Positions 14,221 through 33,343 of a stretch of DNA of 41,208 bases are shown here, piece after piece. Each line of letters opens with the position of its first letter. Within the stretch, counting starts at the first letter, position 1. The notes beneath the pieces were generated by a model. The model saw only the letters and a program-made list of their open reading frames with translations. It was not told the DNA's origin and searched no databases. The DNA is taken from NCBI GenBank assembly GCA_013202745.1, contig JABMRJ010000062.1, forward strand, positions 1-41,208, given 5' to 3'. The translations under genes and the position numbers were made by a program. Origin of the DNA: Candidatus Omnitrophota bacterium. Lineage in GTDB: Bacteria; Omnitrophota; Gorgyraeia; JABMRJ01.

Positions 14221-14227
14221 AACGAGA

Positions 14228-16163: not shown

Positions 16164-16725
16164 TCAATATATATGTGCTTAAGATAAGCTTGATATTATG
16201 TCTCTTGATGTTTTCCGGATTGGCGTTTATATCCATATCCTTTACCATAATAAATCTGTCGCCTGTCTCGAGCCTCTGAAGAAACTGCCCCAATTCGTGA
16301 TAACCGCATTGGGCTACAATCTCAATAGGTATCTCCTGGTAGACTACATTCTTCTCTGCCGCGCGCAGACCCTCCCTGCCAAAAGGCCTTATACCGATAA
16401 TCTTAACACGGGACTTACCTGCTATGCTCGAAAGGCTTTCGAGCAGCTTGGGAACCTCTTCTTCGCTCGGGAATATCTCTTTATATTCGTCCATCTTAAG
16501 GCGCGCTTGGGCTTCATTCTGCTCTATCGTTTTTCTTGTTGATATAAGTTCTTTTGCATCCGCAAGGTCTGCCTTCAGGACGGAGACTTTTGGCAATAAA
16601 TTCATTAACTCATCTATCGATGGCTTGAATAACAAATTGAAGTAGACAGCCGCAATTATCATTACAAAGAGGACTGAGAGGAGCGTCTTTTCGCGCTTGT
16701 TCCTTCCCAACTTAACGCCTGCCAT
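16141..16725 (-). CDS. pilO: Type IV pilus alignment protein PilO
   Basis: 194 aa. One N-terminal TM segment, a coiled coil and a ferredoxin-like C-terminus. Its start overlaps the pilN stop by 1 nt (TAATG). Confidence 0.72.
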   Translation of the reverse strand: MAGVKLGRNKREKTLLSVLFVMIIAAVYFNLLFKPSIDELMNLLPKVSVLKADLADAKELISTRKTIEQNEAQARLKMDEYKEIFPSEEEVPKLLESLSSIAGKSRVKIIGIRPFGREGLRAAEKNVVYQEIPIEIVAQCGYHELGQFLQRLETGDRFIMVKDMDINANPENIKRHNIKLILSTYILIAKGSDV

Positions 16726-17417
16726 TACATCGTTCCTTTCTTAACGCTTGCTTCCTTAAAATACGAATTGATCTTAAAACTCATCGTCTCCGTATCACCG
16801 ATTTTATTCAATTCTGTGGAGACGAGCTCTATATTTGAAAAATCTCTAAAGAAATCTGCGTCGCTTTTTAATCTCTCTATAAACTTTCCTATGATAGCAA
16901 GTTCGTCACCGAATGAAGAGGATACCTCGCCTTCGATATTCAGATAGGACACAATTAAATTCTGTGAAGTTTTATTTCGGGAGCTTGTGCCGATATCCTT
17001 CTTTAACAAACCCGTCCTATTCTTTTCTATGACAACTGTTTTCTTGTCGATAGAGACCCTGGTAAACCATACACCGGGTATTATGAGGTCGCTGAGCTGA
17101 TTCAGTTTCTTGGACCAGAGAATCTTTTTATGTGTCAGGGATTCTATCGCATCAAGCCGCTTCTTTACACTAAGACCGTCTCTTTTGATAAGCTCTATAG
17201 ATTCTTTCTCTTCCCTGATGGACGACCACCCTCTCTCCATCTTTCCATAGGCGGCCTTGTTTACCCTGATAACGGTTATGAAGACGAGATGTGTCACAAC
17301 AAAGAAGATGGCGATGCCGACAGCAGCAGGCAAAAATGCCGCTGTCGCGTCAGGTATCTTAAATGCCTTCCGCTTAGCCTTAAGCTCATCAGGTAAAAGA
17401 TTAATCTCTATCATCAC
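16725..17417 (-). CDS. pilN: Type IV pilus alignment protein PilN
   Basis: 230 aa. N-terminal EINLLP motif (the PilM-binding peptide) followed by a single TM segment. Confidence 0.75.
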   Translation of the reverse strand: MMIEINLLPDELKAKRKAFKIPDATAAFLPAAVGIAIFFVVTHLVFITVIRVNKAAYGKMERGWSSIREEKESIELIKRDGLSVKKRLDAIESLTHKKILWSKKLNQLSDLIIPGVWFTRVSIDKKTVVIEKNRTGLLKKDIGTSSRNKTSQNLIVSYLNIEGEVSSSFGDELAIIGKFIERLKSDADFFRDFSNIELVSTELNKIGDTETMSFKINSYFKEASVKKGTM

Positions 17418-17418
17418 T

Positions 17419-18417
17419 TCATCGCCTTACGGCGAGCCCCACAGCTATGGGGAGCTCTGCCTTTAGGTCTCTCAGCTTTTGGATTTCTATATCTTTATCG
17501 GCCTTTAAGAATCTAAACGGCCCCCACTGGCTGCACTCTACGCCGAAGCTTTCTGCAAAGATTTCCGTTAATCCTTTCAGGTTTGAGAGCCCGCCGCTTA
17601 ATAAGATCTTGTTTACTGAAATGCCTGCCTGGTTTTCATAAAAGCTGAGAGAAAGCTTAACCTCTTCTATCATGTTGGCAAGTATCGGCTTTGCCATCTC
17701 CATCAATTCATTATATCTATCGCCGGGATTCTCTTTGAACTCCGCGGCCTCGCTCAAGCCGAGATTGAGCTTTTCTGATATGGCCTTATCGATATCTATG
17801 CCGCCCATCTCGAGCTCCCTGGTAAAGGCCGCATAACGCCCCTTCAATATGTTTATCATCGTCAAATTGTCTCCAATGTGTATCAAGGCAGTATTCGCAC
17901 TCGTATCTAAATCAGGGAAGGTCAAAAGGAATGCATTTATTAAAGCGAATGAATCGCAGTCGATTATATTGAGCGTAAGGCCGGCCCTCTGTGACATCTT
18001 GACCAGCTCTGAAATTGCTATCTTTTTTGCCGCGACAAGGAGCACCTGCATCTTACCGTGGCTCGCCTGTTCGATTATCTGACAATCTATGTTGACATCG
18101 TTAAGATCGAATGGTATATGCTTCTCTGCCTCAAATCTCATTGAGCTCTTCATCTCATCCTCTGTCATCTCCGGAAGCTCTACATACCTCACAACTACTG
18201 AGGGGCCCGAGATCGCTATATTGGCCTCTTTAAAAGAATATTTGCCGGCCATGCGAACAAGCTCTTTTACGTACCCGTCCGCTGTCTTTTCGCCAACTTT
18301 TACAATATCAAAATTCATGAGCACAGGATTATCTGCATTGCCTGACAGCTGGACGATCTTTATAGATGAGCTCCCAATATCTATGCCGGTATTTAATTTC
18401 AACCGTTTGTGCTTCAT
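17419..18417 (-). CDS. pilM: Type IV pilus assembly ATPase-fold protein PilM
   Basis: 332 aa with an actin/FtsA-like fold (GIDIGSSSIKIVQL, LIHIGDNLT, SGGLSN). It is followed by pilN. Confidence 0.9.
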   Translation of the reverse strand: MKHKRLKLNTGIDIGSSSIKIVQLSGNADNPVLMNFDIVKVGEKTADGYVKELVRMAGKYSFKEANIAISGPSVVVRYVELPEMTEDEMKSSMRFEAEKHIPFDLNDVNIDCQIIEQASHGKMQVLLVAAKKIAISELVKMSQRAGLTLNIIDCDSFALINAFLLTFPDLDTSANTALIHIGDNLTMINILKGRYAAFTRELEMGGIDIDKAISEKLNLGLSEAAEFKENPGDRYNELMEMAKPILANMIEEVKLSLSFYENQAGISVNKILLSGGLSNLKGLTEIFAESFGVECSQWGPFRFLKADKDIEIQKLRDLKAELPIAVGLAVRR

Positions 18418-18433
18418 GGGTACTCGTGCCCTT

Positions 18434-18553
18434 CTATGCCGCTTGAGCAGACTGCCTGCGGATTATCTCCGAGGTCCGTGAGTTCGTAATTTCCGCAATA
18501 ATGGCCACAACTATCATCATCTCGACAATAGTAAGCCCAACCCTCGCAATCAA
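18434..18553 (-). pseudogene. Prepilin N-terminal remnant (39 codons from a TTG)
   Basis: Hand translation gives (M)IARVG/LTIVEMMIVVAIIAEITNSRTSEIIRRQSAQAA*. The G/LTIVE..VVAII segment is a class III signal with Glu at +5 and parallels KG/FTLVEIMIVVAIIG of the adjacent pilA. There is no globular domain and no clear RBS. Confidence 0.4.
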
Positions 18554-18590
18554 GAGTTGGGCATGTCCAGGTCTCTTCTCGCATTTGTTA

Positions 18591-18662
18591 TAATATGGCA
18601 TTATTACTTATTATCATAATATTATGTTATGTGTCTAATTATTATACAATAATGCCATATTA
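18591..18662. repeat. 15-bp perfect inverted repeat with a 42-nt AT-rich spacer
   Basis: TAATATGGCATTATT (18591-18605) and AATAATGCCATATTA (18648-18662). The spacer contains a 12-bp palindrome, CATAATATTATG (18615-18626). The repeat lies between the pilA terminator and pilM. Confidence 0.85.
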
Positions 18663-18688
18663 CTAGTGGAAAGTCAAGCAGATATGAC

Positions 18689-18724
18689 AAAAGAGGCGGT
18701 GAGTTGTTACTCACCGCCTCTTTT
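18689..18724 (-). terminator. Intrinsic terminator downstream of pilA (symmetric, potentially bidirectional)
   Basis: 16-bp perfect stem, AAAGAGGCGGTGAGT.. (18689-18704) pairing with 18709-18724, and a 4-nt loop. A/T runs flank it on both sides. It starts 19 nt after the pilA stop. Confidence 0.8.
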
Positions 18725-18742
18725 CTATATCCGTATTAGCAA

Positions 18743-19084
18743 TTACTGTCCAGCCACATTCCCGTGTACGCCGCATGATGCATACGCCGGAACGCTGCCC
18801 GAGGCAGCAACGAGCGTATAAGCATTTGAGTCGCCATCAACGGTAGGCACGTTCCTCAAATACGGGCTTAGGTTTGCGAGTGCCGTAGGCCAAGCACCAG
18901 TGTCAATCTGGAACATCTGAATGGCACTATCGATCTGCCTTAGGTTTGCTAAGCATGCGTTTGACGCTGCCGTAGCACGTGCAGTCACAAAATTTGGAAT
19001 GGCTATAGCTGCCAATAACCCTATAATTGCTACAACGATCATTATTTCGACAAGCGTGAAGCCTTTCCTGTCTCTCTTCTTCAT
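18743..19084 (-). CDS. pilA: Type IV major pilin (prepilin)
   Basis: MKKRDRKG/FTLVEIMIVVAIIGLLAAIAIPNF is a canonical class III signal with Glu at +5. The start at 19084 follows GAGGAGGGG. Two Cys residues (C52, C112) could form a disulfide. The gene has its own promoter and terminator. Confidence 0.9.
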   Translation of the reverse strand: MKKRDRKGFTLVEIMIVVAIIGLLAAIAIPNFVTARATAASNACLANLRQIDSAIQMFQIDTGAWPTALANLSPYLRNVPTVDGDSNAYTLVAASGSVPAYASCGVHGNVAGQ

Positions 19085-19265
19085 CGTCATTCCCCTCCTC
19101 TCCAACCATGTTTGGTTAGTCTGGCCTCTTATTTCAGCACATCAAAGCATAGGTATAATATATATTAGCCCTTATGCTGCGATATGTTACCTGCTTGGGA
19201 AGACTATCTGTCAAAGATCCCTCTTGCGGGGCCTCGATATGAGGCCTTTTAAGGCCATCGAAACA

Positions 19266-19293
19266 AGTATAGCATATAACGGTTAAAAGTCAA
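19266..19293 (-). promoter_or_regulatory. Sigma70-like promoter for pilA with a leader of about 175 nt
   Basis: On the minus strand: TTGACT (19293-19288), a 16-nt spacer, then TATACT (19271-19266). It lies just downstream of the pilC stop. Confidence 0.45.
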
Positions 19294-19305
19294 CCCTTGG
19301 GGTGC

Positions 19306-20520
19306 CTATCCGGTCACTATTTGCGATAACTGGAATATTGGTAAGAACATACAGATGACGATGGCCCCTATGACTATACCTAAAAATGCTATTATAAGAG
19401 GTTCTATCATGCTCGTTAGGCCGCTTACAGAAGCATCGATCTGCTCATCGTAAAAGTCCGATATCTTGGAAAGCATCTTATCCAACTCACCGGTCTTTTC
19501 ACCAACCGAGATCATCCTCACTACAAGCGGCGGAAAGACCCCGCATCGCTTGAGTGGTGTTGCTATGCTCTCCCCTTCCCGTATACTGTTGCGCACATCC
19601 GTAACTGCATTCTCAACTACCATATTCCCTGACGTCTTCGCTACTATCTCGAGACATGTCAGTATGGGCACACCTGCCTTTATTAATGTTGAGAGGGTCC
19701 TGGTAAACTTGCTTATTGCTACCTTGCGCACCAATGCTCCAAAGATAGGGAGTCTCAAAAAACGGCGATCAACAAATAACTTTCCTCTGGGCGTCTTTGC
19801 GAAGCGTCCAAACATGAAGGCAATTATAGAAAAGGCCACAACGAAAATAAGGAAATATCTCCTTAAGATCTCACTGGCGGATATTAGAATCTGGGTAGGC
19901 AGCGGCAGATCAGCGCCAAAACCGGCATATATCTCGCCAAATATCGGTATCACTTTTATTAAAAGGAGTATAGTGACCGATAAGGCCATGACAGTTATCA
20001 CTGCCGGGTATACCATGGCCGACTTGATCTTTTTTTGCAGCGTATTTGTCTTTTCGAGATAGAGCGCTACCCTGTCGAGTATTTCATCGAGCATGCCGCT
20101 CGACTCGCCGGCCTTTACCATATTGACAAAAATATTAGAGAAGACCCCGGAGTGTTTGGCAAACCCTTCAGAGAGGCTCTTGCCGGATTCGATCTCTTTG
20201 CGCACATCTATGAGCACCTCTTTAAAGGCCTTGTTCTCCATCTGTTCAGAAAGTATATCCAAAGCACTTATCAGTGTAATGCCTGCGCTCACCATCGTCG
20301 CCATCTGCCTGGAGAATATTACAAGATCATCCAATTTTACCTTCTGCTTAAAAAATGTTCCGGAAAATATTGATGCTATCTGCGCTGCCTCAGTGACGTT
20401 TATGATAACCAGCCCTTTATCCCTCAGCATCTTTATCGCCTCATATTTGTCAGCGGCTTCTATAATGCCCTTTACGGCTTTTCCTTCTTTATCTTTTGTA
20501 ATGTAGTTATACATTGGCAT
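19306..20520 (-). CDS. pilC: Type IV pilus platform protein PilC (GspF family)
   Basis: 404 aa. Two GspF-type repeats and three TM regions. It follows the pilB genes. Confidence 0.93.
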   Translation of the reverse strand: MPMYNYITKDKEGKAVKGIIEAADKYEAIKMLRDKGLVIINVTEAAQIASIFSGTFFKQKVKLDDLVIFSRQMATMVSAGITLISALDILSEQMENKAFKEVLIDVRKEIESGKSLSEGFAKHSGVFSNIFVNMVKAGESSGMLDEILDRVALYLEKTNTLQKKIKSAMVYPAVITVMALSVTILLLIKVIPIFGEIYAGFGADLPLPTQILISASEILRRYFLIFVVAFSIIAFMFGRFAKTPRGKLFVDRRFLRLPIFGALVRKVAISKFTRTLSTLIKAGVPILTCLEIVAKTSGNMVVENAVTDVRNSIREGESIATPLKRCGVFPPLVVRMISVGEKTGELDKMLSKISDFYDEQIDASVSGLTSMIEPLIIAFLGIVIGAIVICMFLPIFQLSQIVTG

Positions 20521-20532
20521 CTTCGTCCTCCT

Positions 20533-22248
20533 CTAATCAGAGGTAATTCGCAGGACTTCTTCCAGTGTCGTCAATCCCGCGACAAATTTTTCAATGGCAT
20601 TGGCCTTCAGGCTCTTCATGCCATTCTTTAAAGCGTAAGCATTAATCTCGTCGCTTGACTTTCTCGCAACGATCATCTCCCTTATCTTGTCATCGATAAG
20701 CAATGTTTCGAGGGTGCCGAGTCTGCCGAAGTATCCCGTATGGATGCATTTATCACACCCCTTGCCTTTATAAAATTGAATACTCTTTTTTGTCTTGCGC
20801 AAATTTTTTATATCAATACCGGCCCGCTCAAGCACCTCGTCTGGAATGTCGACGGGCTCTTTACAATGGACACAGATCTTCCTGCAGAGCCTTTGTGCGG
20901 CCATCATAACGCCGCTCGACGCTATAAGAAAAGGTTCGACACCCATATCTATAAGCCTTGTAATGGCACTCGCTGCATCGTTTGTATGTAAGGTACTCAA
21001 TACCAGGACACCTGTCAATGAGGCCTTTATCGCTATATCTGCCGTTTCAAAATCTCTTATCTCGCCAATCATGATGATATCGGGACTCTGTCTCAAGAGT
21101 GACCTCAAACCGCTTGCGAATGTGAGACCTATATCTGCGTTTGTCTGGATCTGCGTAATCCCTTCCACCTGGTATTCAACAGGGTCTTCTACTGTAATTA
21201 TCGATCTCTCAGGCACGTTGAGCTGGGTAATAATCGAATACAATGTAGTCGACTTACCGCTGCCTGTAGGCCCTGTAACTAGTATCATGCCATAGGGCCT
21301 TTCCAGCGCTTTCTTAAAGACGTCGAGCGTCTCTTTTAAAAACCCCAGTTTATCAGGCCCTACACTCAGGTTGGCCTTATCGAGCGCTCTTAAGACCATC
21401 TTACTCCCGAAACTTATTGGCAGGGATGACACCCTGAAGTCTATCTCTTTTGCTCCGTGCCTGATCTTAAACCTGCCGTCTTGAGGAAGCCTCGACTCGG
21501 TTATATCCAGGCGCGACATGATCTTTAGTCTTGCCAGTACTGCGTTTTGATTCTTCTTTGGAAGGATAAATGCCTCTTGCAGCTTTCCATCAACACGATA
21601 TCTTATCCTGAGGGCATCTTCTTCCGGCTCTATATGTATGTCGCTCGCCCTCTTCTTTATGGCCTCCGCCAATATAAGATCAACCACCTTTACTATGGAC
21701 GTCTGCTTACTCTCTACAGTGACCTGTTTTAGATCTACCTTCTCTTCGGCCACAACCTCAAGCCCTTCTATATTTTCCTCCGTCTCAAGCTCGACCGTCT
21801 CATCCTTATCTGATGCGCCGTAACATATCTCTATTGCATTCCTAATATCGCTCTCTGTGGATATTACCAGATCGATTTCACATTTTGTCATAGCCTTTAC
21901 ATCGTCTACTGCAAAGATATTCATAGGATCAGATACGGCCACCGTCATATGGTTGCCTATCCGTGAAACAGGCACAACCATATAATGGCGCGCAAAACGC
22001 TCTGGTATCTGCAATATGAGTGATGGGTCGATATTGTACTTAGAAAGGTTTATAGGAGGTATATTGAATTCCTGGCTCAGCACGATCATGAGATCCTTTT
22101 GTGTTACATATCCGTTGTCGATAAGTATCTTGCCTAAATTACCGCCTTTCTCCTTTTGGATGATAAGCGCCCTCTCAAGCTCTGCCTTCTTTATGAGCTT
22201 AGAGTCCATCAATATCTTTGCAAATTTATCCTTGAAGGATTCTGCCAT
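20533..22248 (-). CDS. pilB: Type IV pilus assembly ATPase, PilB/GspE paralog 1
   Basis: 571 aa. N-terminal MshEN/T2SSE_N domain, Walker A GPTGSGKSTT, Asp box/Walker B PDIIMIGEIRD, His box TGVLVLSTLHTNDA, and tetracysteine CVHC..CDKC. Confidence 0.9.
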   Translation of the reverse strand: MAESFKDKFAKILMDSKLIKKAELERALIIQKEKGGNLGKILIDNGYVTQKDLMIVLSQEFNIPPINLSKYNIDPSLILQIPERFARHYMVVPVSRIGNHMTVAVSDPMNIFAVDDVKAMTKCEIDLVISTESDIRNAIEICYGASDKDETVELETEENIEGLEVVAEEKVDLKQVTVESKQTSIVKVVDLILAEAIKKRASDIHIEPEEDALRIRYRVDGKLQEAFILPKKNQNAVLARLKIMSRLDITESRLPQDGRFKIRHGAKEIDFRVSSLPISFGSKMVLRALDKANLSVGPDKLGFLKETLDVFKKALERPYGMILVTGPTGSGKSTTLYSIITQLNVPERSIITVEDPVEYQVEGITQIQTNADIGLTFASGLRSLLRQSPDIIMIGEIRDFETADIAIKASLTGVLVLSTLHTNDAASAITRLIDMGVEPFLIASSGVMMAAQRLCRKICVHCKEPVDIPDEVLERAGIDIKNLRKTKKSIQFYKGKGCDKCIHTGYFGRLGTLETLLIDDKIREMIVARKSSDEINAYALKNGMKSLKANAIEKFVAGLTTLEEVLRITSD

Positions 22249-23979
22249 CTATGCCTCTATAGCCTGGTCGCCGACTGTCACCCTCACTACCTCCTCAAGC
22301 GTTGTAAGTCCGGCAAGCACTTTTGCCAGGCCGTTCTCTCTCAGTGTCTTCATGCCCTCTTTTATTGCCTGTGCTTTAATCTCAGACTCCTGAGCTCTGC
22401 GCGCTATCAAGTCTTTTATCGTAGGCGTAAGGACCAATACCTCAGCCAATCCTATCCTTCCCTTATAACCTGTATTTTCACATGTCTTGCAGCCTCTGCC
22501 TTTATGTAATATAACCGGTGCCTTAATATTGTCTATCCGCAGCCTCTTTAGTATCGATTCATTCACCTTGTATTCTTCCGAACATTTCGGGCAAACTTTT
22601 CTGATTAACCTCTGCGCCGCTACGAGAACTACGGATGAAGATATGAGAAAAGGTTCTACCCCCATGTTGACCATGCGCACTATAGAACCGCATGCGGTCG
22701 TCGTATGCAAGGTGCTCAAGACAAGGTGCCCGGTAAGCGCCGCTTTTATGGCTATGTCGACTGTATTGAAGTCCCTTATCTCACCGACCATTATTACGTC
22801 CGGGTCCTGCCTCAGTATAGACCTTAAGGATGCTGCAAACGTAAGGCCTATATTCGACTGTATGGCCACCTGATTTATCCCCTTCAGCTGATATTCTACC
22901 GGATCCTCTACCGTCACTATATTCTTCTCCGGAGAGTCGACGAGATTAAGTATGGAATAGAGTGTGGTCGTCTTGCCGCATCCGGTCGGGCCGCAGATGA
23001 GTATCATGCCATGAGGCCTGGCAGAAGCCTTCTTTAAATCATCCAGCGGCTCTCTTTCGAAGCCAAGCTTATTTAGATCTAGCACCGCCTGACTTTTATC
23101 GAGAATCCTCAACGCGGCCTTTTCTCCCATGCTTGACGGAAGAACCGATATCCTGAAATCGACTTCACGCTCAGCTATCTTTATCTTAAATCTTCCATCC
23201 TGCGGAAGCCGCCTCTCTGCAATATTTAAGTTAGACATAACCTTAAGACGCGATACTATCGCAGCATGCATGGTGCGCGGGGGCTTGCGCCCCTCCCTTA
23301 GGAGGCCGTCTACCCTGTAACGCACCCTCATCTCATGCTCTAAAGGCTCTATCAATATGTCGCTCGCCTTGAGTCTTATGCCATCACTCAAGAGCCTGTC
23401 TGTGACCTTAACTACAGGCGCCTCCTGCGTAAGCTTCATAAGGGCTTGAGAGTCTATATCTTCGACTGAAGACTCTTCTACCATCTGTATCCTCTTCGCC
23501 TCTTCTATGTCTTCTATAATCTTTTCTACAGCATGGTGGGTATCCTCACCATAATAATGCTCTATCGCATCCCTCATATCTTTATCTGTTGTAACGACCG
23601 GGCCTATCTTGAATCCTGTAAGGGCCTTGATATCATCTACGGCAAATACATTGAGTGGATCGGCCATGGCAACGGTCAATATATTGCCCATCTTTGATAT
23701 CGGGAGGATATTATAATGCAGCGCTATCTTCTTAGGGATGAGATTGAGGACCTCAGCATCTATCTTATACCTCGACAGGTTTATCGGGGGTACGCCAAGT
23801 TCCAGACTAAGGAGGGACATAAGGGCATCTTTCTCTACGAACCCTTCACCCACCAATATATCACTCAATTTGCCGCCCTTCCGCTTCTGTATCTTAAGGG
23901 CCTTGTCGAGATCTTTCTGTGAAATCAGGCCCTTCTTTATAAGGGCACTTGAGATCCTGTCTCTTAAGGTAGGTGACAT
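22249..23979 (-). CDS. pilB: Type IV pilus assembly ATPase, PilB/GspE paralog 2
   Basis: 576 aa. MshEN domain, Walker A GPTGCGKTTT, PDVIMVGEIRD, TGHLVLSTLHTT, and CPKC..CKTC. Its TAG stop abuts the ATG of paralog 1 with no spacer. Confidence 0.9.
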   Translation of the reverse strand: MSPTLRDRISSALIKKGLISQKDLDKALKIQKRKGGKLSDILVGEGFVEKDALMSLLSLELGVPPINLSRYKIDAEVLNLIPKKIALHYNILPISKMGNILTVAMADPLNVFAVDDIKALTGFKIGPVVTTDKDMRDAIEHYYGEDTHHAVEKIIEDIEEAKRIQMVEESSVEDIDSQALMKLTQEAPVVKVTDRLLSDGIRLKASDILIEPLEHEMRVRYRVDGLLREGRKPPRTMHAAIVSRLKVMSNLNIAERRLPQDGRFKIKIAEREVDFRISVLPSSMGEKAALRILDKSQAVLDLNKLGFEREPLDDLKKASARPHGMILICGPTGCGKTTTLYSILNLVDSPEKNIVTVEDPVEYQLKGINQVAIQSNIGLTFAASLRSILRQDPDVIMVGEIRDFNTVDIAIKAALTGHLVLSTLHTTTACGSIVRMVNMGVEPFLISSSVVLVAAQRLIRKVCPKCSEEYKVNESILKRLRIDNIKAPVILHKGRGCKTCENTGYKGRIGLAEVLVLTPTIKDLIARRAQESEIKAQAIKEGMKTLRENGLAKVLAGLTTLEEVVRVTVGDQAIEA

Positions 23980-23980
23980 A

Positions 23981-24103
23981 TTATCTTTTACCGTAATATC
24001 TGGTTAGGGCATCGCTCACATCGCTTAATGTGCTTACGAATACCTGGACATTACATTTGGATAGAAGTTCTATGTCTTCGACTGCCTGGATATTTAATGG
24101 GTT
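23981..24103 (-). other. In-frame continuation of the MshEN-domain gene beyond its TAA (40 codons plus a stop)
   Basis: Hand translation directly after the TAA at 24106-24104 gives NPLNIQAVEDIELLSKCNVQVFVSTLSDVSDALTRYYGKR*. This aligns with ADPLNVFAVDDIKALTGFKIGPVVTTDKDMRDAIEHYYGED of PilB paralog 2. Confidence 0.7.
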
Positions 24104-24421
24104 TTACATAGCTATAGTAAGAGTCTCACCGATCCTATCTATGGGGATTAGATGATACTGTCTTGCAACATGCTCCGGTATGATATTAATAACGGCGTTG
24201 TCGATATCATAGCCTTTTAAAGGGAGATAGGGAAAACCATACTGAACGGTTATTGCCTGCGCAATCTCCTCTTCTGTAGCATGGCCCATGGCAACGAGTA
24301 TCTGGCCGATCAGCCCGCCCTTATGAGTCTGTATCTCAAGGGCCTTATCGAGCTGTTTCTTGGTTATTATGCCCCTCTCCATGAGGAGCTCTCCGAGTTG
24401 TTTTGAGATCTTTCTTTTCAT
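24104..24421 (-). CDS. Stand-alone MshEN / T2SSE N-terminal domain protein (105 aa as annotated; about 146 aa if the TAA is bypassed)
   Basis: QLGELLMERGIITKKQLDKALEIQ-THKGG-LIGQILVAMGHATEEEIAQAITVQ matches the tandem 24-residue MshEN c-di-GMP-binding motif. The ORF ends at a TAA inside the domain. Confidence 0.7.
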   Translation of the reverse strand: MKRKISKQLGELLMERGIITKKQLDKALEIQTHKGGLIGQILVAMGHATEEEIAQAITVQYGFPYLPLKGYDIDNAVINIIPEHVARQYHLIPIDRIGETLTIAM

Positions 24422-24426
24422 CTAGA

Positions 24427-25491
24427 TTATTGATGAAGAAGCCGTGCCAGATCATTGGGATCGGTCGTCCTGCCCATGGCATCTTCGTATGTTATTACAC
24501 CTTTTCTGTACAATTCTGCAAGAGACTGGTTCATAGTCCTCATGCCTTCCTTATGACCGGTCTGCACAGCAGAATATATCTGGTGGACCTTTGACTCACG
24601 TATCATACTACGTACCGCTGCATTTACCATAAGGATCTCTGTGGCCAGTGCCCTGCCCGTGCCCTTTGCCCTTGGTATAAGCTGCTGTGAGACGACACCC
24701 ATAAGCACGAAGGACAACTGGGTACGTATCTGCGCCTGCTGGTATGCCGGAAAGACATCTATAGCCCTATTGATAGTCTGGACAGCATCTGAGGTATGGA
24801 GAGTTGCAAATACAAGATGTCCGGTCTCTGCGATGATGAGCGCAGACTCTATGGTCTCGAGATCCCTCATCTCTCCTATGAGTATGACGTCAGGGTCCTG
24901 CCTAAGGACGTGCTTGAGGCTGGCCCCAAATGAAAACGTATCCGAACCCAACTCCCTCTGTTCAATTATGGCCTTCTTGTGCTCATGGAGAAATTCTATA
25001 GGATCTTCAATGGTTATTATATGGCATTGCCTTTCTAAGCTTATCGCATTGACCATAGATGCAAGCGTAGTCGTCTTCCCGCTTCCGGTTGCGCCTGTTA
25101 CCAGCACAAGCCCTTTCGGCTTTCTCGACAATTCCGTTACGGGCCCGATCGGCAGTCCGCATTCTTCAAAACTCATGATCTTAAAAGGTATGGCCCTTAT
25201 CGCCACACCTACGCTCCCGCGCTGCTGATATACATTTACCCTGAAGCGGCTCAAGCCCTCTACGCTGAAGGACATGTCAAGCTCCCTATCCTTCTCAAAC
25301 CTCTCTATCTGCTCCTGGCTCAACAGGCTGTAGGCCAGATCTTTTGAGATCTGCGAATTCACCACATCTGCATTTGCGGATACAAGCTTTTCATCTATAC
25401 GATACTGCGGTGGCGTGCCGACCGTTATATGGAGATCGGATGCATTCTTTAGTATCATCTGTTTCAATAATATCTTCAATTCGCTCTTCAT
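24427..25491 (-). CDS. pilT: Twitching-motility retraction ATPase PilT
   Basis: 354 aa. Walker A GATGSGKTTT, PDVILIGEMRD and TGHLVFATLHTSDA. No MshEN domain. Confidence 0.93.
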   Translation of the reverse strand: MKSELKILLKQMILKNASDLHITVGTPPQYRIDEKLVSANADVVNSQISKDLAYSLLSQEQIERFEKDRELDMSFSVEGLSRFRVNVYQQRGSVGVAIRAIPFKIMSFEECGLPIGPVTELSRKPKGLVLVTGATGSGKTTTLASMVNAISLERQCHIITIEDPIEFLHEHKKAIIEQRELGSDTFSFGASLKHVLRQDPDVILIGEMRDLETIESALIIAETGHLVFATLHTSDAVQTINRAIDVFPAYQQAQIRTQLSFVLMGVVSQQLIPRAKGTGRALATEILMVNAAVRSMIRESKVHQIYSAVQTGHKEGMRTMNQSLAELYRKGVITYEDAMGRTTDPNDLARLLHQ

Positions 25492-25509
25492 GTCCCCTCT
25501 CTCTCTTAT

Positions 25510-26928
25510 TTATGTCGCAACTCTATTTTTGCCTTCAAGTTTTGCCCTTTTCATAAGAGCGGTGGCCTTTTCAAAGAGATCCTTGGATGAGATCCCGTCT
25601 ATCGGATTCTCGCTTACACTCCCGCTTATGGTAAGCGAGAATTTGCTCTTCTTAGAGACCTTTATTCCAATATCCTCTACTTTTTTTCTTATCTCTTCTG
25701 CAAGCTGTGTCGCCTCCTTCTTGTTCTTCTCCGGAAGGACGACAGCAAATTCGTCGCCGCCTATCCTGGCCACTTTACTCACGGGCGTAACGCTATCTTT
25801 GAGCGTAGCTGCAATTTTCTTCAGCACATCTTCTGTTACCATTTCACCCTGCGTCTGTCTGAACTCTTTAAAATTGTCTATATCAAAAAGCAGTAGTGAG
25901 CATGGCCTCTGGTAGAGCATCGCCCTCTTTATCTCTTCGCCAAGCCTCTCTTTTATATATTTATTATTATAGAGATCCGTAAGCTCATCCTTTATTGCCA
26001 GCTCTTTGGTCTTTCTAACAAGTAGATCGTTTCCAATGGCAATGCCCAACTGCTTGCTCAGTACCTTAATAAGCTCGATGTCATCCTCTCTGAACCTGAA
26101 ATTATCCGTATTGTTTCCTGTAAAGATAAAGCCTATAGAACTGCCGCGCGATATCACGGGCACTACGGCACAGTTTCGCATCTTGAATTTTCTGCAGATA
26201 TCTTCGGATTGCGACGTCAACCGCGCAGAGGTATCGACCTTGATAACCTTCTTATCACCCACATTCCGCCCCAGGAACTCTTTACCAAGATTAAAAGAGA
26301 TCGTCTTTAAATGCTCTTTATCTATATTAGACGACGCCATAAGGTTCAATTTCGGGCTATTATCTCTAATTAAAAAGAGCGCTGTGGAGTTGTCATCATA
26401 GAGGTCATTTACTTTTTCTACTATGATCTCGTAAACACGTTCCAGCTTTTCAGAGACGGCTATCATGTCGCCTATCTGGAGGAGGTTAGATAGCGCCAGG
26501 ACCTTCTTCTGAATCTCAAGATTCACCTCTTTAGTCCTTACGCTATAATCCTGGAGCTCGCTCATATAGCCCTTTATCTTCTGAGTCATGGCGTTTATAG
26601 ATCTGCCAATGTCGCCGACCTCATCCTCTGTCTCTATTGTCACCCTTTTGCCGAAATCGCCGCTTGCGATGATGCGGGTCTCAAGCGCCATATCTATAAT
26701 GGGGTCTACCATCCTCTTGGCGAGAATTAGCCCGAGAAGGGCTATAGATATCGTAAGGATCACGATTATGCTCACCTCCGCAAGGTCATCAAGGGCCGGG
26801 AAGATGAAAGTTGAGACGAGATATACGCACACAAGAAGCGGGATTATAGACATGAGGGCAAAAGATATCATTAGCTTATAACGTAAGCCTTTTGGAACCA
26901 TAGACATACGTCTAAATAATTTTTTCAT
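25510..26928 (-). CDS. Membrane-bound diguanylate cyclase (2 TM - HAMP - GAF-like - GGDEF)
   Basis: 472 aa. Two N-terminal TM segments, a HAMP domain (..DEVGDIGRSINAMTQKIK), a GAF-like middle region and an intact RIGGDEF active site. No RxxD I-site lies 5 residues upstream. AGGAGGG RBS. Confidence 0.88.
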   Translation of the reverse strand: MKKLFRRMSMVPKGLRYKLMISFALMSIIPLLVCVYLVSTFIFPALDDLAEVSIIVILTISIALLGLILAKRMVDPIIDMALETRIIASGDFGKRVTIETEDEVGDIGRSINAMTQKIKGYMSELQDYSVRTKEVNLEIQKKVLALSNLLQIGDMIAVSEKLERVYEIIVEKVNDLYDDNSTALFLIRDNSPKLNLMASSNIDKEHLKTISFNLGKEFLGRNVGDKKVIKVDTSARLTSQSEDICRKFKMRNCAVVPVISRGSSIGFIFTGNNTDNFRFREDDIELIKVLSKQLGIAIGNDLLVRKTKELAIKDELTDLYNNKYIKERLGEEIKRAMLYQRPCSLLLFDIDNFKEFRQTQGEMVTEDVLKKIAATLKDSVTPVSKVARIGGDEFAVVLPEKNKKEATQLAEEIRKKVEDIGIKVSKKSKFSLTISGSVSENPIDGISSKDLFEKATALMKRAKLEGKNRVAT

Positions 26929-26971
26929 AACACCCTCCTGTTATATTATTATTATATTATAATTATCAACA

Positions 26972-27000
26972 AGTATACATTACACTATATATTTTGTCAA
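26972..27000 (-). promoter_or_regulatory. Sigma70-like promoter for the DGC-pilT-pilB operon
   Basis: On the minus strand: TTGACA (27000-26995), a 17-nt spacer, then TATACT (26977-26972). It lies about 45 nt upstream of the DGC ATG. Confidence 0.5.
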
Positions 27001-27073
27001 ACTTAAGAGGCAGGGATTGCACCTTAGCTCAAGCTATATTACAGAACGCGCAATAGGAAAAAGTCTTACGTTA

Positions 27074-27093
27074 CCTGCCTGCCGGCAGGCAGG
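27074..27093. repeat. 20-nt perfect GC-rich palindrome
   Basis: CCTGCCTGCCGGCAGGCAGG is self-complementary over all 20 nt. Confidence 0.9.
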
Positions 27094-27100
27094 CGCTCCC

Positions 27101-27218
27101 CTCAGCTTCTTGTACCGGGTGCAATTTTGTTCGGCAAAGTGTCCCCGAATTGAGCTCCAAGCTGTCCCTGGGGACAGGTTGGTGAGTAAATTTGCACCCG
27201 GTACAAGAAAATACTGAG
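27101..27218. other. 118-nt extended hairpin (candidate structured RNA element)
   Basis: 18-bp perfect stem: TTCTTGTACCGGGTGCAA (27107-27124) pairs with TTGCACCCGGTACAAGAA (27192-27209). A 5-bp outer helix, CTCAG/CTGAG (27101-27105 / 27214-27218), extends it. An inner hairpin is CTGTCCC-TG-GGGACAG (27162-27177). Confidence 0.7.
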
Positions 27219-27301
27219 CGAAGGCTCTATGTGTCTTTGGGGCTGGATAAAGGACTGCGGCACTTTGCCGAAGCGACACAACTTTAGGGGGTAAGAGATT
27301 C

Positions 27302-27340
27302 TTAAAGAGAAAGGGGGACATACTCCCCCTTTCTCTTTAA
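27302..27340. terminator. 17-bp perfect hairpin, terminator-like in both orientations
   Basis: TTAAAGAGAAAGGGGGA (27302-27318), a CATAC loop, then TCCCCCTTTCTCTTTAA (27324-27340). The stem has a GC core and a U/A-rich base. Confidence 0.55.
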
Positions 27341-27357
27341 TATAGATTGGTGTGTTA

Positions 27358-27432
27358 GGGAAATGGCATATTTGTTTGGCATCCGACGGATCTATGTCAA
27401 TGTTAAGGATGGCAAAAAATATGCCATTTTCT
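27358..27432. repeat. 24-26-bp imperfect inverted repeat with a 22-nt spacer
   Basis: AAATGGCATATTTGTTTGGCATCC (27361-27384) pairs with GGATGGCAAAAAATATGCCATTTT (27407-27430), 22 of 24 complementary, plus up to 2 flanking pairs. Confidence 0.85.
27412..27426 (-). promoter_or_regulatory. Sigma54-type -24/-12 promoter element
   Basis: The minus strand reads TGGCATATTTTTTGC. The consensus is TGGCAC-N5-TTGC, with GG and GC separated by exactly 10 nt. It lies within the right arm of the inverted repeat. Dyads at 27476-27498 and 27501-27519 sit about 75-120 nt upstream of the predicted start. Confidence 0.45.
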
Positions 27433-27500
27433 GAGTACATACTAGGAGGGGGTGACAGTGAGCGTCTGGGAGATTCCATGTCGTAGCGAACGTCATGGAG

Positions 27501-27519
27501 GGGGAACCTTAGGTTCCCC
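27501..27519. repeat. 8-bp perfect dyad with a 3-nt centre
   Basis: GGGGAACC-TTA-GGTTCCCC. A second, imperfect dyad, CCATGTCG..CGTCATGG, lies at 27476-27498. Confidence 0.8.
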
Positions 27520-27527
27520 TATGAAAT

Positions 27528-27562
27528 AAAAACGTTCTGACCTATATCAGGAGGACGTTTTT
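27528..27562 (-). terminator. Probable intrinsic terminator of the mre-mrdA-rodA-radical-SAM operon
   Basis: The minus-strand RNA reads AAAAACGUCCUCCUGAUAUAGGUCAGAACGUUUUUAUUU. It forms an imperfect stem spanning the TGA stop (27549-27547) and is followed by a U-run. Confidence 0.4.
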
Positions 27563-29247
27563 ATCTTCTTAGCTTCACTAATGAGGTGGGAGTGTGTAAT
27601 ACCCGGATCGATGTGGTCCCAGGGTAGTTTGGCTTCAAAATCTCTCTTTTCATATATATAAGAGTAAGGGTCTACGCCCTCCTCTTTGAAGGCCTCCATC
27701 CATGCTCCGTAGTTAAAGTGCTCAGACCAGCTGTCGAACCTGCAGCCTTTTTTGAATGCACGCAAGATGACCCTGCCAAGGCGCATGTCCCCGCGGGATA
27801 TTATACCTTCCAGTATGCTCACCTTAGTATTTTGGAATTTTATCTTCACCCTCCTCGCTGTCAGCCTCTCCATTATGTAGTTTAGCCTACTATTGAGCTC
27901 TTCTTCTCTAAACATGCCTTCCCACTGGAATGGTGTATGCGGCTTCGGGATAAATGAAGATATGCTTACATTGATCTGGAGGCGCCTGTCTATATTGAGC
28001 ATGGAATTCACCGCATCAATCATCTCGTCTATATCTTTGTACTCCTCGGTAGGGAGACCTATCATAAAGTAGAGTTTTACTCTCTTCCACCCGAATTTTA
28101 CAGCTGCCTCAATGGCGGGTTTAAGCTCATCTATATCTATGCCTTTATTTATGACAGATCTCAGGCGGCTCGATCCTGCTTCAGGCGCAAGAGTCAGTCC
28201 GCTTATCCTAATATTGCTAAGAAGCTCAGGAAATTCCTTAATGATCTTATCTACCCTTAGCGAAGGAAGGGAGATATTTACACCCTTCTTGTAATATTTT
28301 TTGATAATGGACTGTATAATACTTATGATATGGGAATGGCTCCCTGATGACAGTGAAAGAAGAGAGACTTCTTCGTATCCTGTCTCCTTTAATCCTTCTT
28401 CGCACAGCTCGAGTACCTTCCTTGCTGAACGCTCTCTTTTATGATGATAGAGTGTGCGCGCCTGGCAGAACCTGCACAGATGCGGACACCCCCTCATGAT
28501 CTCCACACTCAGCCTGTCATGGACTATGCCGATATAAGGGACGATCTGCTTTGTGGGATAGAATGAATTCTCGAGATCTGCTATCACCCTTTTTCTTATG
28601 GTAGGCGGGTTTGTATTGCGGTATACCGACGGTACATAGACGCCCTCTATATGCGACAGCTCCTTAAGAAGGTTTTCTTTATTATAATGCCCTCCTTCTT
28701 TAGATGCGATTACCGCATCTATACATTCGAAGAGAACCTCTTCTGCCTCTCCTATTATAAAGAGGTCTATAAAATCGCTGAGCGGTTCCGGATTGAATGA
28801 TGAAGGCCCTCCGGCTATTACAATGGGTTCATTCTCGCCCCTTTCGCTCGACGTAAGCGGTACGCCGGCCATATCCAGGATATTTAATAGATTTGTATAA
28901 TTGAGTTCGTATGCCAGCGAGAATCCGATAATGTCAAAACTCGCGATATCCGCTCTTGACTCAAGCGTAAACAAGGGTATCGCTTCCGCCCTCAGGATCT
29001 TCTCTAGGTCAATATTGACAGAGAAGACTCTTTCGCATGCTATATCCGGCCTATTATTCAGCAGATGGTATATGAGTTTGAAGCCAAGATGGCTCATGCC
29101 GACTTCGTAGAGATCGGGAAAGGCAAGCGCAAACCGCAATCGGGAATTCCGGAGATCCTTCTTTACAACATTCCACTCATTGCCGAGATATCTCCCGGGC
29201 CTCTGTACGCGCGACAGTATCTCTTCAAATTTAGCTTGATTTAACAT
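27547..29247 (-). CDS. B12-binding-domain radical SAM protein (TIGR03960-like)
   Basis: 566 aa. N-terminal B12-like domain, CxxxCxxC cluster motif MRGCPHLCRFCQA, and a long C-terminal extension. Family assignment is from memory of overall architecture. Confidence 0.8.
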   Translation of the reverse strand: MLNQAKFEEILSRVQRPGRYLGNEWNVVKKDLRNSRLRFALAFPDLYEVGMSHLGFKLIYHLLNNRPDIACERVFSVNIDLEKILRAEAIPLFTLESRADIASFDIIGFSLAYELNYTNLLNILDMAGVPLTSSERGENEPIVIAGGPSSFNPEPLSDFIDLFIIGEAEEVLFECIDAVIASKEGGHYNKENLLKELSHIEGVYVPSVYRNTNPPTIRKRVIADLENSFYPTKQIVPYIGIVHDRLSVEIMRGCPHLCRFCQARTLYHHKRERSARKVLELCEEGLKETGYEEVSLLSLSSGSHSHIISIIQSIIKKYYKKGVNISLPSLRVDKIIKEFPELLSNIRISGLTLAPEAGSSRLRSVINKGIDIDELKPAIEAAVKFGWKRVKLYFMIGLPTEEYKDIDEMIDAVNSMLNIDRRLQINVSISSFIPKPHTPFQWEGMFREEELNSRLNYIMERLTARRVKIKFQNTKVSILEGIISRGDMRLGRVILRAFKKGCRFDSWSEHFNYGAWMEAFKEEGVDPYSYIYEKRDFEAKLPWDHIDPGITHSHLISEAKKIKTSS

Positions 29248-29249
29248 GG

Positions 29250-30344
29250 TCAGAATCTCGGACGGCGCATGCCTATGTTTAAGAGAAGGCCGATAGAGAT
29301 CATGGTTGTGATGAGTGAAGAGCCCCCGTAACTCATAAGGGGCAATGGCAGGCCTACTACAGGCATAAACCCTGCGGCCATTCCCAGATTGACGATTATC
29401 TGAAAGGCGAGCATTGCGATTATCCCTACAGCCATGGACCTACCGTAGGTATCGGCTGTAGCGCCGGCTATCTTAAGCCCTCTGTAGAGCAAGACGGAAA
29501 ATAGGCCTATAAGTATGAGGCAGCCTATAAAACCTCCCTCTTCGCCTATCACAGAAAATATAAAATCGGTATGCCTCTCGGGAAGAAAATTAAGCTGGTT
29601 CTGCGTACCGCTCAGCCAGCCCTTGCCCAGGACGAATCCCGAACCTATAGCTATCCTCGACTGGATCATAGTATAGCCGGCACCGAGCGGATCGGCATTG
29701 GGGTTTATAAAGACCGATAACCTCAGTTTCTGATATTCTTTAAGCATGTGCCATATAAAAGGGGTCGATAATAATCCGATAGAGATTATCGTTAGGAGGT
29801 GCCTTATCCTCGCACCCCTTGCAAATAACATAAAAAAGAGGATGGGCATAAGGACGAGCGCGGTTCCTAAATCGGGTTGCAGATAGATAAGAACCAGAGG
29901 CGGCATGGTAATGAGAAACGGCACAAAGAGATCTGTGATTCTATAAGAGAACTTCGCCCTAGTCCCAAGATAAGAGCTCAGGGCAAGTATGTAGGTAATC
30001 TTTATAAATTCGGAAGGCTGGAAGCCGAATCCCCCTATTGAGAACCATCTCTGTGCGCCGAATCTGGCGCGGCCGAAAAAGAGCACCATAACAAGCAAGA
30101 GGCAGTTTAAGCCAAATAATATATATGCCCAATCTATAAAGCGCTGGTAGTCTATATTGAGTATTAGAAAAAGAATTACGAGTCCCGCACACATCCAGAG
30201 AATCTGTTTCAATACCAGGCCGCCCAAAAGACCGGAGCCCTCAGTATGTGTTGCGCTATATATAGAGGAAAGCCCTATAGCAAATATTACGAGTGTAACT
30301 ATGAATAGTACCCTGTCAAAATCCCTATGTAACTTTGCCTTCAT
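29250..30344 (-). CDS. rodA: Peptidoglycan glycosyltransferase RodA (SEDS family)
   Basis: 364 aa and about 10 TM segments. FtsW/RodA/SpoVE motifs (QPSEF.K, PERHTDFIF, PLPLMSYGGSS). It lies immediately downstream of mrdA. Confidence 0.9.
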   Translation of the reverse strand: MKAKLHRDFDRVLFIVTLVIFAIGLSSIYSATHTEGSGLLGGLVLKQILWMCAGLVILFLILNIDYQRFIDWAYILFGLNCLLLVMVLFFGRARFGAQRWFSIGGFGFQPSEFIKITYILALSSYLGTRAKFSYRITDLFVPFLITMPPLVLIYLQPDLGTALVLMPILFFMLFARGARIRHLLTIISIGLLSTPFIWHMLKEYQKLRLSVFINPNADPLGAGYTMIQSRIAIGSGFVLGKGWLSGTQNQLNFLPERHTDFIFSVIGEEGGFIGCLILIGLFSVLLYRGLKIAGATADTYGRSMAVGIIAMLAFQIIVNLGMAAGFMPVVGLPLPLMSYGGSSLITTMISIGLLLNIGMRRPRF

Positions 30345-30346
30345 AT

Positions 30347-32065
30347 TTAGAAATAATTTAACTCCTTAAGTTTTCCGAAAATATCACCTGCGGTCTTGCT
30401 GGCTGCGAGGCCGCCTTTCCCGCCATACTCAAGGAATATGACTACCGCCGCCTTGGGATCGTCTGCCGGGGCAAACCCAGTAAACCACGCATGTGTCTTG
30501 TCGGTAGAGGTCTGTGCTGTCCCGGTCTTACCCGCCACCTTGAGCCCGCTGACAACAGCATTGCGACCTGTGCCATTAGAGTCATTGACCACTTTTACAA
30601 GACCCTCTTTAATTATCTCTATCGTCTCTTTGCTAATATTAACCGGCCTCTTTTCTATCTGGGAGATATCGACATCCTCTATCCTCTTGACTAAGTAGGG
30701 TTTTACCAGATAGCCGCCGTTTGCAATGGCAGATATTGCCCTGACTATCTGTAAGGGTGTTACCAGAAGATACCCCTGGCCTATAGAATAGTTGAGCGTC
30801 TCCCCCTTATACCATGACTCCCTCTTTTTTAGCGCCTTCCACATCTTATTCGGTACGAGTCCGCTCGCCTCATTGGACAGGTCGATACCTGTAGGCCTGC
30901 CGAATCCAAACCGCGAGGAGTAGTTGGCTAAGTTCTCGACGCCGGCCATGCTCCCTGCCTGATAAAAATAGACATTGCAGGAGTTTTTGATGGCATCACG
31001 CATACTCTGTTCACCGTGGCCCTTCTTTTTCCAGCATCTGAATACCTTATTCCCGAGGGCATAACTGCCATTGCATGTCAAAGTAGTACGTGCTGTTACC
31101 CCGCCCCTCTCAAGCGCTGCAGCTGCGGTCACGACCTTAAATACAGATCCCGGAGGATAAGTACAATGGGCCGCCCTATTGAGCATAGGATAGTCTTTCC
31201 TTACGAATAGGCTGCTTATTTTGCCGGACCCTGCATCCTCGATAAAGAGGTTCGGGTCGAAGGATGGGGTACTTACCAGGCTTAAGATACGGCCGTTTCT
31301 CGGATCCATAACACATACAGCACCGCGCGCGCCCTTGAAGATTTCCTCTATAAAACTCTGGAGCCTTATATCTATAGTAAGGTAGAGATCTTTACCCTTT
31401 ACAGGCTCCCTTATACCGAGAAAACCTACCTGGTATCCCATGTTATTCACTTCTATCTGCATGCCGCCGCGGGTGCCTTTTAAGTAATTGTTGTAATGCT
31501 TCTCTATACCTGATTTGCCGATAAGGTCGTTCATGCGATAACCGTAATCCTTAAGGCGTGTAAGCTCACCCCGGTTTATCTGCCCTAAATAACCAAAGAT
31601 ATGTGAACCGGCATCCTTGTAAATATAATGCCTGCGCGGGGACGTCTCTATAAAGACGCCTGGCAGGTCCAGCCTCTCTTCCTCAAGTATTATCGCCTTT
31701 TTCTTGCCTATATCGGAGAGGATCTTTACAGGCTGAAACGGTGTGACAAAATTTCTTTTAAGGGATTTTCTTAGATCTTCCTGGGAAACATCAAGAATAC
31801 CACTGAGATCTTTTAGAATCTCATCCTTATGTTTTAACTCCTGCGGTATGATGGCGACATCGAATGATATCCTATTGTCCACCAGGAGTTCGCCATTGGT
31901 GTCAAATATTCTTCCGCGGGGGCTCTCTATGGACAGGAGCCTTATGCGGTTCTGCGTGGAGAGTTTCTGATATAAGGTACCCCTTACGATCTGTATATAG
32001 AAGAGTCCTATTATAATAAATAAAAAGGAGACAAATATGATTATCCCTAATGTCTTTATCCTCAT
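30347..32065 (-). CDS. mrdA: Penicillin-binding protein 2 (elongasome transpeptidase)
   Basis: 572 aa. N-terminal TM segment, and SxxK (PGSVFK), SxN (NSCN) and KTG (GKTGTAQ) motifs. It sits between mreD and rodA. Confidence 0.9.
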   Translation of the reverse strand: MRIKTLGIIIFVSFLFIIIGLFYIQIVRGTLYQKLSTQNRIRLLSIESPRGRIFDTNGELLVDNRISFDVAIIPQELKHKDEILKDLSGILDVSQEDLRKSLKRNFVTPFQPVKILSDIGKKKAIILEEERLDLPGVFIETSPRRHYIYKDAGSHIFGYLGQINRGELTRLKDYGYRMNDLIGKSGIEKHYNNYLKGTRGGMQIEVNNMGYQVGFLGIREPVKGKDLYLTIDIRLQSFIEEIFKGARGAVCVMDPRNGRILSLVSTPSFDPNLFIEDAGSGKISSLFVRKDYPMLNRAAHCTYPPGSVFKVVTAAAALERGGVTARTTLTCNGSYALGNKVFRCWKKKGHGEQSMRDAIKNSCNVYFYQAGSMAGVENLANYSSRFGFGRPTGIDLSNEASGLVPNKMWKALKKRESWYKGETLNYSIGQGYLLVTPLQIVRAISAIANGGYLVKPYLVKRIEDVDISQIEKRPVNISKETIEIIKEGLVKVVNDSNGTGRNAVVSGLKVAGKTGTAQTSTDKTHAWFTGFAPADDPKAAVVIFLEYGGKGGLAASKTAGDIFGKLKELNYF

Positions 32066-32067
32066 AG

Positions 32068-33326: not shown

Positions 33327-33343
33327 ACTTTAAGGTGGGTATA

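Follow-up and report, generated by a model that had tools for sequence, protein, structure and literature searches.

An in-frame TAA private to one contig in a conserved stand-alone MshEN gene of an Omnitrophota pilus motor operon

The stand-alone MshE-N-like (MshEN) gene at 23984..24421 (minus strand) is very probably a conserved and otherwise intact gene of 146 codons. The one TAA that interrupts its translation in this contig, at codon 106, is a private single-base change that reflects either an error in the consensus or the sequencing, or a rare recent allele. The window, i.e. the whole stretch of DNA analysed here (41,208 bp), is one entire contig of a metagenome-assembled genome (1.67 Mb, 195 contigs, 91.5% complete). 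Judged by the sequences of sibling assemblies and orthologues, the TAA is not a property of the lineage or of the strain.

The split gene, its domain and its predicted fold

An earlier note on this DNA, made from the sequence alone, had described a 105-aa open reading frame, a TAA, 40 further in-frame codons and a second stop 1 nt before the ATG of pilB. This frame is seen in the translation. The 105 codons from the minus-strand ATG at 24421 end with ..GETLTIAM and are followed by the TAA at 24106..24104 (24104..24106, minus strand), the middle base of which is window position 24105, a T on the plus strand. The 40 in-frame codons past the TAA (23984..24103, minus strand) read NPLNIQAVEDIELLSKCNVQVFVSTLSDVSDALTRYYGKR (NPLNIQ...RYYGKR) and are closed by a second TAA at 23983..23981 (minus strand). 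The latter is the true terminator of the MshEN gene and lies 1 nt ahead of the pilB ATG at 23979.

The 40 codons were thought to continue the same MshEN domain, and this is borne out by the Pfam MshEN model (PF05157), which matches both pieces in register and above its gathering cut-off of 23.1 bits. The 105-aa piece accounts for profile positions 1-45 (E 6e-8, 32.9 bits), the 40-aa piece for positions 47-86 (E 2e-5, 25.0 bits). The TAA therefore occupies profile position 46, a residue position inside the domain, as had been proposed. In the alignment with both PilB paralogues, likewise anticipated in the note, the TAA stands opposite Ala in PilB1 and Ser in PilB2, within ..AM[A/S]DP[L/M]N... 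The PF05157 model spans the C-terminal subdomain only (residues 61-145 of the MshEN protein), and the c-di-GMP-binding four-helix bundle (residues 8-60) is wholly upstream of the TAA.

Gene callers (JGI, Logan) begin the MshEN gene at Met14, which results in products of 133 aa and 92 aa; an SD-like GGAGAG upstream of Met14 probably misleads them. Since residues 1-13 (M-K-K/R-x-I/V-x-K-Q-L-G-E-L-L; window 24382-24421) are conserved across orthologues and hold the first residues of c-di-GMP motif I, the ATG at 24421 is taken as the true start. For annotation, the gene is best treated as an intact 146-aa protein that starts at the conserved Met1 and not at Met14.

Residues 8-60 (24242..24400, minus strand) form the c-di-GMP motif pair QLGELLMERGIITKKQLDKALEIQ-THKGG-LIGQILVAMGHATEEEIAQAITVQ, i.e. 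two 24-residue motifs separated by a 5-residue spacer. The consensus is [R/K/L]LGxx(L/V/I)(L/V/I)xxG(L/V/I)(L/V/I)xxxxLxxxLxxQ, present twice with 5 residues in between (Wang et al. 2016; NF053729). NCBIfam model NF053729, which describes the 53-residue c-di-GMP motif, matches residues 8-60 over 53/53 positions with 59.2 bits (cut-off 38). The stand-alone protein was earlier ranked as the best motif fit among the three MshEN copies of the window, a ranking that agrees with the lower NF053729 scores of the two PilB proteins (48.6 and 47.9 bits). Position 1 of motif I is Gln, which is outside R/K/L and also outside the relaxed set [RKPN]; among the 110 family members, 100 have Gln here. Motif II has Leu at position 1, as in the very-high-affinity GSPII-B domain of PilF, and its positions 11-12 are His-Ala in this strain (Tyr/Phe-Ala in the family).

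A structure of the read-through sequence was modelled with AF2 from a 53-sequence alignment (pLDDT 91.4, pTM 0.82). The model consists of a four-helix bundle (H9-15, H21-34, H38-44, H50-61) and a C-terminal alpha/beta subdomain (H75-78, H83-89, E91-97, E100-105, H111-121, E124-129, H132-143). Codon 106 immediately follows the second strand of the C-terminal subdomain, so that one strand and two helices, all undamaged, are encoded past the TAA. The top Foldseek match of the read-through model is MshE with c-di-GMP (5htl, TM 0.81/0.85). At the sequence level, the full-length protein aligns to Geobacter PilB N-termini (E 1e-28 to 1e-30) and to the GSPII domains of Thermus thermophilus PilF (E 1e-44, three domains combined), and residues 4-143 align to Vibrio cholerae MshEN (5HTL; E 4e-18). 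By profile, motif and modelled fold, the split gene encodes a member of the MshEN family.

The TAA site in sibling assemblies and orthologues

Four public freshwater-metagenome runs (X1-X4) contain the sequence. Position 24105 is T in the window and G in every other assembly covering the site, where the codon is TCA (Ser106). TAA and TCA are separated by one C-to-A change on the coding strand (G-to-T on the plus strand). Over positions 14001-34000, T>G at 24105 is the sole difference between the window and the Logan contigs of X1 and X2. The JGI contig L026 (13,445 bp) and the contig L028 (5,530 bp; a Logan contig of X1) differ from the window at 24105 only, and the JGI contig L027 (10,255 bp) differs at 24105 and four other sites. 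At 23996, within the 40 codons past the TAA, L027 has a synonymous TAT-to-TAC change (Tyr142). This polymorphism is common to L027 and a sister strain in X4 and represents ordinary, selection-compatible variation. The sister strain (~95% identical; protein P0004) has G at 24105 and thus Ser. X3 is without a contig over 23996-24110, and the X2 assembly is broken at 24042-24073; similar breaks also occur elsewhere at this depth (~7-10x).

The protein collection gives the same picture. The truncated proteins, with entries of 105 aa (NCBI) and 92 aa (JGI), come from the 41,208-bp contig only. The protein of the intact allele, P0123 (133 aa), is found on 3-4 other contigs and equals the window protein from Met14 except for Ser106. 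A search for 31-mers spanning the TAA allele matched no indexed run, which is a weak test (a 61-base query with 2 sampled words only), and exact look-ups of the 146-aa read-through sequence and of the 105-aa product in the contig index gave no match.

Outside the site difference, X1-X3 are identical to the window except for two clustered patches. The first (43-228) comprises 16 differences in ~190 bp at the contig end. The second (39046-39121) comprises 7 differences in 76 bp and is intergenic, located between the ORFs 38411-38917 and 39249-41132. The source population of the window is therefore not identical to those of X1-X3. A search with the window-private patch 39030-39140 led to run X4, where the second patch has the same form as in the window. 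In X4, several strains are mixed at low depth, and only a contig of the sister strain (G) covers 24105. In sequence, the two patches look like strain mosaicism or recombination tracts, or like the assembler switching between co-occurring strains.

A stand-alone orthologue is present in 32 of 40 relatives from the same class, as open frames of ~146-200 aa that are 42-73% identical to the window protein; the orthologues themselves are 146-160 aa long. The site was checked at the codon level in 20 of these orthologues, all of which encode Ser (TCA, TCC, TCG, TCT) or Ala (GCN). Orthologues degraded in different ways, which the earlier note would have taken as the mark of a decaying pseudogene, were not found; those checked are intact. 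Counting all loci examined, 23/23 have TCN or GCN and none has a stop. The '1 TAA' flags raised for the relatives G016 and G034 were rejected as a conserved internal stop because the natural terminators had been included in the match. In the family alignment of 110 members, the site is occupied by Ser (90), Ala (16), Gly (3) or Cys (1).

Conservation extends past the TAA. N107 is conserved in 109/110 family members, and P108, N110, A113, D116, E118, Q126, F128, T131 and Y143 are invariant or nearly so in the family alignment. The 40 residues after the TAA are identical to those of P0123; at the DNA level they match L026 and L028 exactly, and L027 differs at 23996 only. Taken over the complete gene, the other 145 residues equal the intact allele (P0123 from Met14; DNA of L026/L028 over the full gene), i.e. 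there is a single lesion. Stand-alone MshEN proteins are also abundant in databases, with >2,800 clusters of 143-220 aa that are mostly unnamed or annotated as 'PilB' or 'hypothetical'.

Explanations for the TAA

The earlier note had listed four options, namely a recent nonsense mutation, a sequencing or assembly error, a functional truncated receptor and leaky read-through. The first two remain. Sibling assemblies read a sense codon (TCA), an outcome that the note had named as refuting; a selected truncated receptor is very unlikely, and leaky read-through has no support. A consensus error and a rare recent nonsense allele are about equally likely, and all other explanations taken together are improbable.

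The reading as a consensus or sequencing error, according to which TCA is the true codon of the source population and the T at 24105 arose artificially in assembly or through read errors at modest depth, has an even chance of being correct. The change is private to one contig, lengthens a run of T (GGTTTG to GGTTTT) and the depth in sibling samples is only ~7-11x. It is also a nonsense change in a strongly constrained gene, whereas 23996, the one other isolated SNV that was codon-checked, is synonymous. Random errors would be expected to produce such a pattern; variants that have passed selection would not. On the other hand, assemblers take the majority path, so that an error must dominate the local reads, and real microdiversity is common in this population.

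A genuine loss-of-function allele, i.e. a very young nonsense mutation that segregates or has become fixed within one sample's sub-population, is a serious candidate at somewhat under even chances. Isolated SNVs between sibling assemblies occur at ~1-4 per 10 kb (four in the 10 kb of L027), which makes a genuine variant plausible. The window has strain-specific patches of its own (43-228 and 39046-39121), the contig breaks of X2 and X3 around the site are compatible with mixed alleles, and the lack of secondary damage fits a very young lesion. The allele was, however, seen in none of the other assemblies covering the site and in no contig of the indexed runs, and it deletes residues that are invariant in the family.

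In the case of a real allele, the ribosome would terminate once strand beta-2 of the C-terminal subdomain has been made. The four-helix bundle would stay, and one strand and two helices would be lost. N107 would also be lost; it is the equivalent of MshE D108 and PilF D266, a position that is the only residue of the C-terminal subdomain contacting the ligand (PMC11731258). With the C-terminal subdomain left incomplete, the TAA allele would most likely abolish function, and it might also act in a polar manner on the translationally coupled pilB.

It is very unlikely that the TAA marks a selected, functional 105-aa truncated receptor or gives rise to two isoforms by leaky read-through. The 105-aa product retains the four-helix bundle, and isolated N-terminal subdomains bind c-di-GMP in published work: VcMshEN 1-62 alone with a KD of 0.35 uM (PMC5013675) and PilF 159-221 alone with a KD of 54 nM (PMC11731258). 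A truncated binder is thus biochemically conceivable. However, the cut is located after the second strand of the C-terminal subdomain and not at the boundary near residue 61, and the residues removed are among the most conserved of the family. None of the 20 codon-checked orthologues or 110 family members has a stop or ends at this site, the same strain has Ser elsewhere, and the allele is found on one contig only. It is likewise highly improbable that the 105-aa product acts as a real c-di-GMP sink uncoupled from the motor that gives rise to heterogeneity within the population.

Read-through in particular is at odds with the use of TAA as the main terminator and with the tRNA set. TAA is the commonest terminator in the genome, where it closes 298/655 long open frames, and no tRNA with anticodon UUA, CUA or UCA was found among the 26 tRNAs of the 91.5% complete assembly. 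Recoding or programmed read-through was rejected on these grounds, i.e. a stop that is not conserved (0/23 loci), undepleted TAA and no suppressor tRNA found. Separate translation of the 40-aa tail was rejected as well; the earliest possible in-frame start past the TAA is a GTG that lies 12 codons before the end of the frame.

A decaying pseudogene, as a remnant of a duplicated pilB 5' end, is hardly credible. The two pilB genes follow the gene directly and encode N-domains homologous to its product, but identity to the PilB N-termini amounts to only 35-37%. A recent duplicate or fragment of pilB is ruled out at this level of identity. Moreover, stand-alone orthologues with 55-73% identity occupy the matching position in 32 of 40 relatives, database clusters of such proteins are numerous (see above), the alignment columns are very strongly conserved and the gene carries no further lesion. 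A decaying pseudogene, like recoding and programmed read-through, is thus excluded or very unlikely.

The case calls for caution with in-frame stops in metagenome-assembled genomes. Here, the stop vanishes once sibling assemblies are compared, and it should therefore not be taken for recoding, for an isoform switch or for a pseudogene. The lasting point is the gene itself: a strongly conserved stand-alone MshEN, fixed between pilT and pilB and located beside a dedicated diguanylate cyclase in small-genome Omnitrophota.

Genomic context and putative c-di-GMP signalling

To characterize the synteny of the locus, the proteins of the window were compared by tblastn with the corresponding neighbourhoods of 20 relatives. 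The order radical-SAM / GGDEF / PilT / MshEN / PilB1 / PilB2 / PilC is conserved across these neighbourhoods, and the GGDEF gene is found directly upstream of the block in 15/20 relatives. In the window, all genes of the block are encoded on the minus strand. The GGDEF gene (25510..26928) encodes a HAMP-GAF-GGDEF diguanylate cyclase according to Pfam, with an intact RIGGDEF and no RxxD I-site. It is followed by a PilT-family retraction ATPase (24427..25491; TIGR01420 464 bits, Pfam T2SSE), the stop codon of which is 5 nt before the MshEN ATG. Downstream of the MshEN gene are PilB paralogue 1 (22249..23979), PilB paralogue 2 (20533..22248) and, as the last gene of the motor block, the PilC platform protein (19306..20520; Pfam T2SSF and synteny). 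A B12-type radical-SAM gene (Radical_SAM_N2; window 27547-29247; loci L030-L047 in the relatives) is located directly upstream of the GGDEF-pilT-mshEN-pilB block in 15/20 relatives.

The motif residues are distributed unevenly among the three MshEN copies. The stand-alone protein retains Gly3 and Gln24 in both motifs in 20/20 relatives. In PilB1 of the window, Gly3 is replaced by Ser in motifs I and II, and motif II ends in Glu instead of Gln. Among the 20 relatives, Gly3 of PilB1 motif I is mostly Thr, Asn or Ser, Gly3 of motif II is Ser in 16, and the terminal residue of motif II is never Gln (Glu, Gly or Asp in 18/20). PilB2 of the window lacks both Gly residues of motif I, and its motif II ends in Glu. 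For this paralogue, Gly3 of motif I is Gly in only 1/20 among those listed, Gly3 of motif II is Gly in 7/20, and the terminal Gln of motif II is replaced by Glu in 18/20 relatives. Changes at the corresponding positions (G11V, G40L, Q61V) are among those blamed for the loss of binding in XpsE (PMC5013675), and Q190E weakens PilF GSPII-B (PMC11731258).

The loss of ligand-contacting Gly and Gln residues in the PilB paralogues and their retention in the stand-alone MshEN suggest a division of labour. The intact protein would most likely bind c-di-GMP supplied by the co-encoded GGDEF cyclase and would relay the signal to the neighbouring motor ATPases PilT and PilB, acting in trans. On the basis of synteny and motif sequences, it is tentatively proposed that this is an Omnitrophota-wide arrangement, in which a free-standing MshEN, encoded together with a HAMP-GAF-GGDEF cyclase of its own, may have taken over c-di-GMP sensing for the pilus motor from the PilB N-domains and would act in trans on PilB and/or PilT. 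That both PilB N-domains pass the NF053729 cut-off (48.6 and 47.9 bits) speaks against a strong version of such a division of labour. The MshEN block is a compact candidate system in which pilus extension and retraction would be under trans-acting control by c-di-GMP. A literature search for descriptions of stand-alone MshEN proteins or of a c-di-GMP module tied to an Omnitrophota pilus yielded nothing specific.

Among characterized systems, V. cholerae MshEN (5HTL; PMC5013675) has the same two-subdomain fold (Foldseek TM 0.81/0.85 over 138 columns). It also has two 24-residue motifs with a 5-residue spacer, and Leu2, Gly3, Gly10, the hydrophobic cluster and the terminal Gln are kept in both motifs. 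In contrast to V. cholerae, where MshEN is the N-terminus of the ATPase MshE, the window protein is free-standing with 146 aa. The first motif residue is Gln (motif I) or Leu (motif II) instead of Arg, the equivalent of Asp108 is Asn107, and c-di-GMP binding by the window protein is a prediction.

The GSPII-B domain of T. thermophilus PilF (8PDK; PMC11731258) shares the arginine-free motif with the window protein. HMMER pairs Q8 with K167, and motif II starts with Leu in both proteins. Its fold matches the window model with a TM of 0.74-0.77. GSPII-B is, however, one of three tandem domains in PilF, and the Gln at motif I position 1 of the window protein is outside the published R/K/L.

The FimX-PilZ-PilB system of Xanthomonas (7LKM/7LKO) is a functional analogy only, in that a separate c-di-GMP sensor signals in trans to PilB. 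The Xanthomonas PilB N-domain has the same fold as the window model (TM about 0.75). The sensor there is a degenerate EAL domain that acts via a PilZ adaptor, whereas the putative sensor here is the MshEN domain itself. In E. coli NfrB/DgcJ (NCBIfam NF008411 match), an MshEN domain likewise works with a dedicated diguanylate cyclase in a local signalling module. NfrB is a fusion of MshEN with a glycosyltransferase; the window domain, in contrast, stands alone in a pilus motor operon.

Among the matches listed, the 1.67-Mb genome of the window contains 8 GGDEF domains and each of 40 relatives (1-2.7 Mb) contains 2-14. The density of c-di-GMP signalling genes is high for such small genomes. Some relatives (G008, G024, G032 and G034) encode two or three extra stand-alone MshEN paralogues (150-200 aa, 40-49% identical) besides the syntenic orthologue. 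In addition, the N-terminal motif pair is tandemly duplicated in five homologues of 212-221 aa (P0019, P0023, P0024, P0026 and P0033). These proteins contain four c-di-GMP motif copies before one C-terminal subdomain, an arrangement that recalls the multi-motif GSPII-C of PilF.
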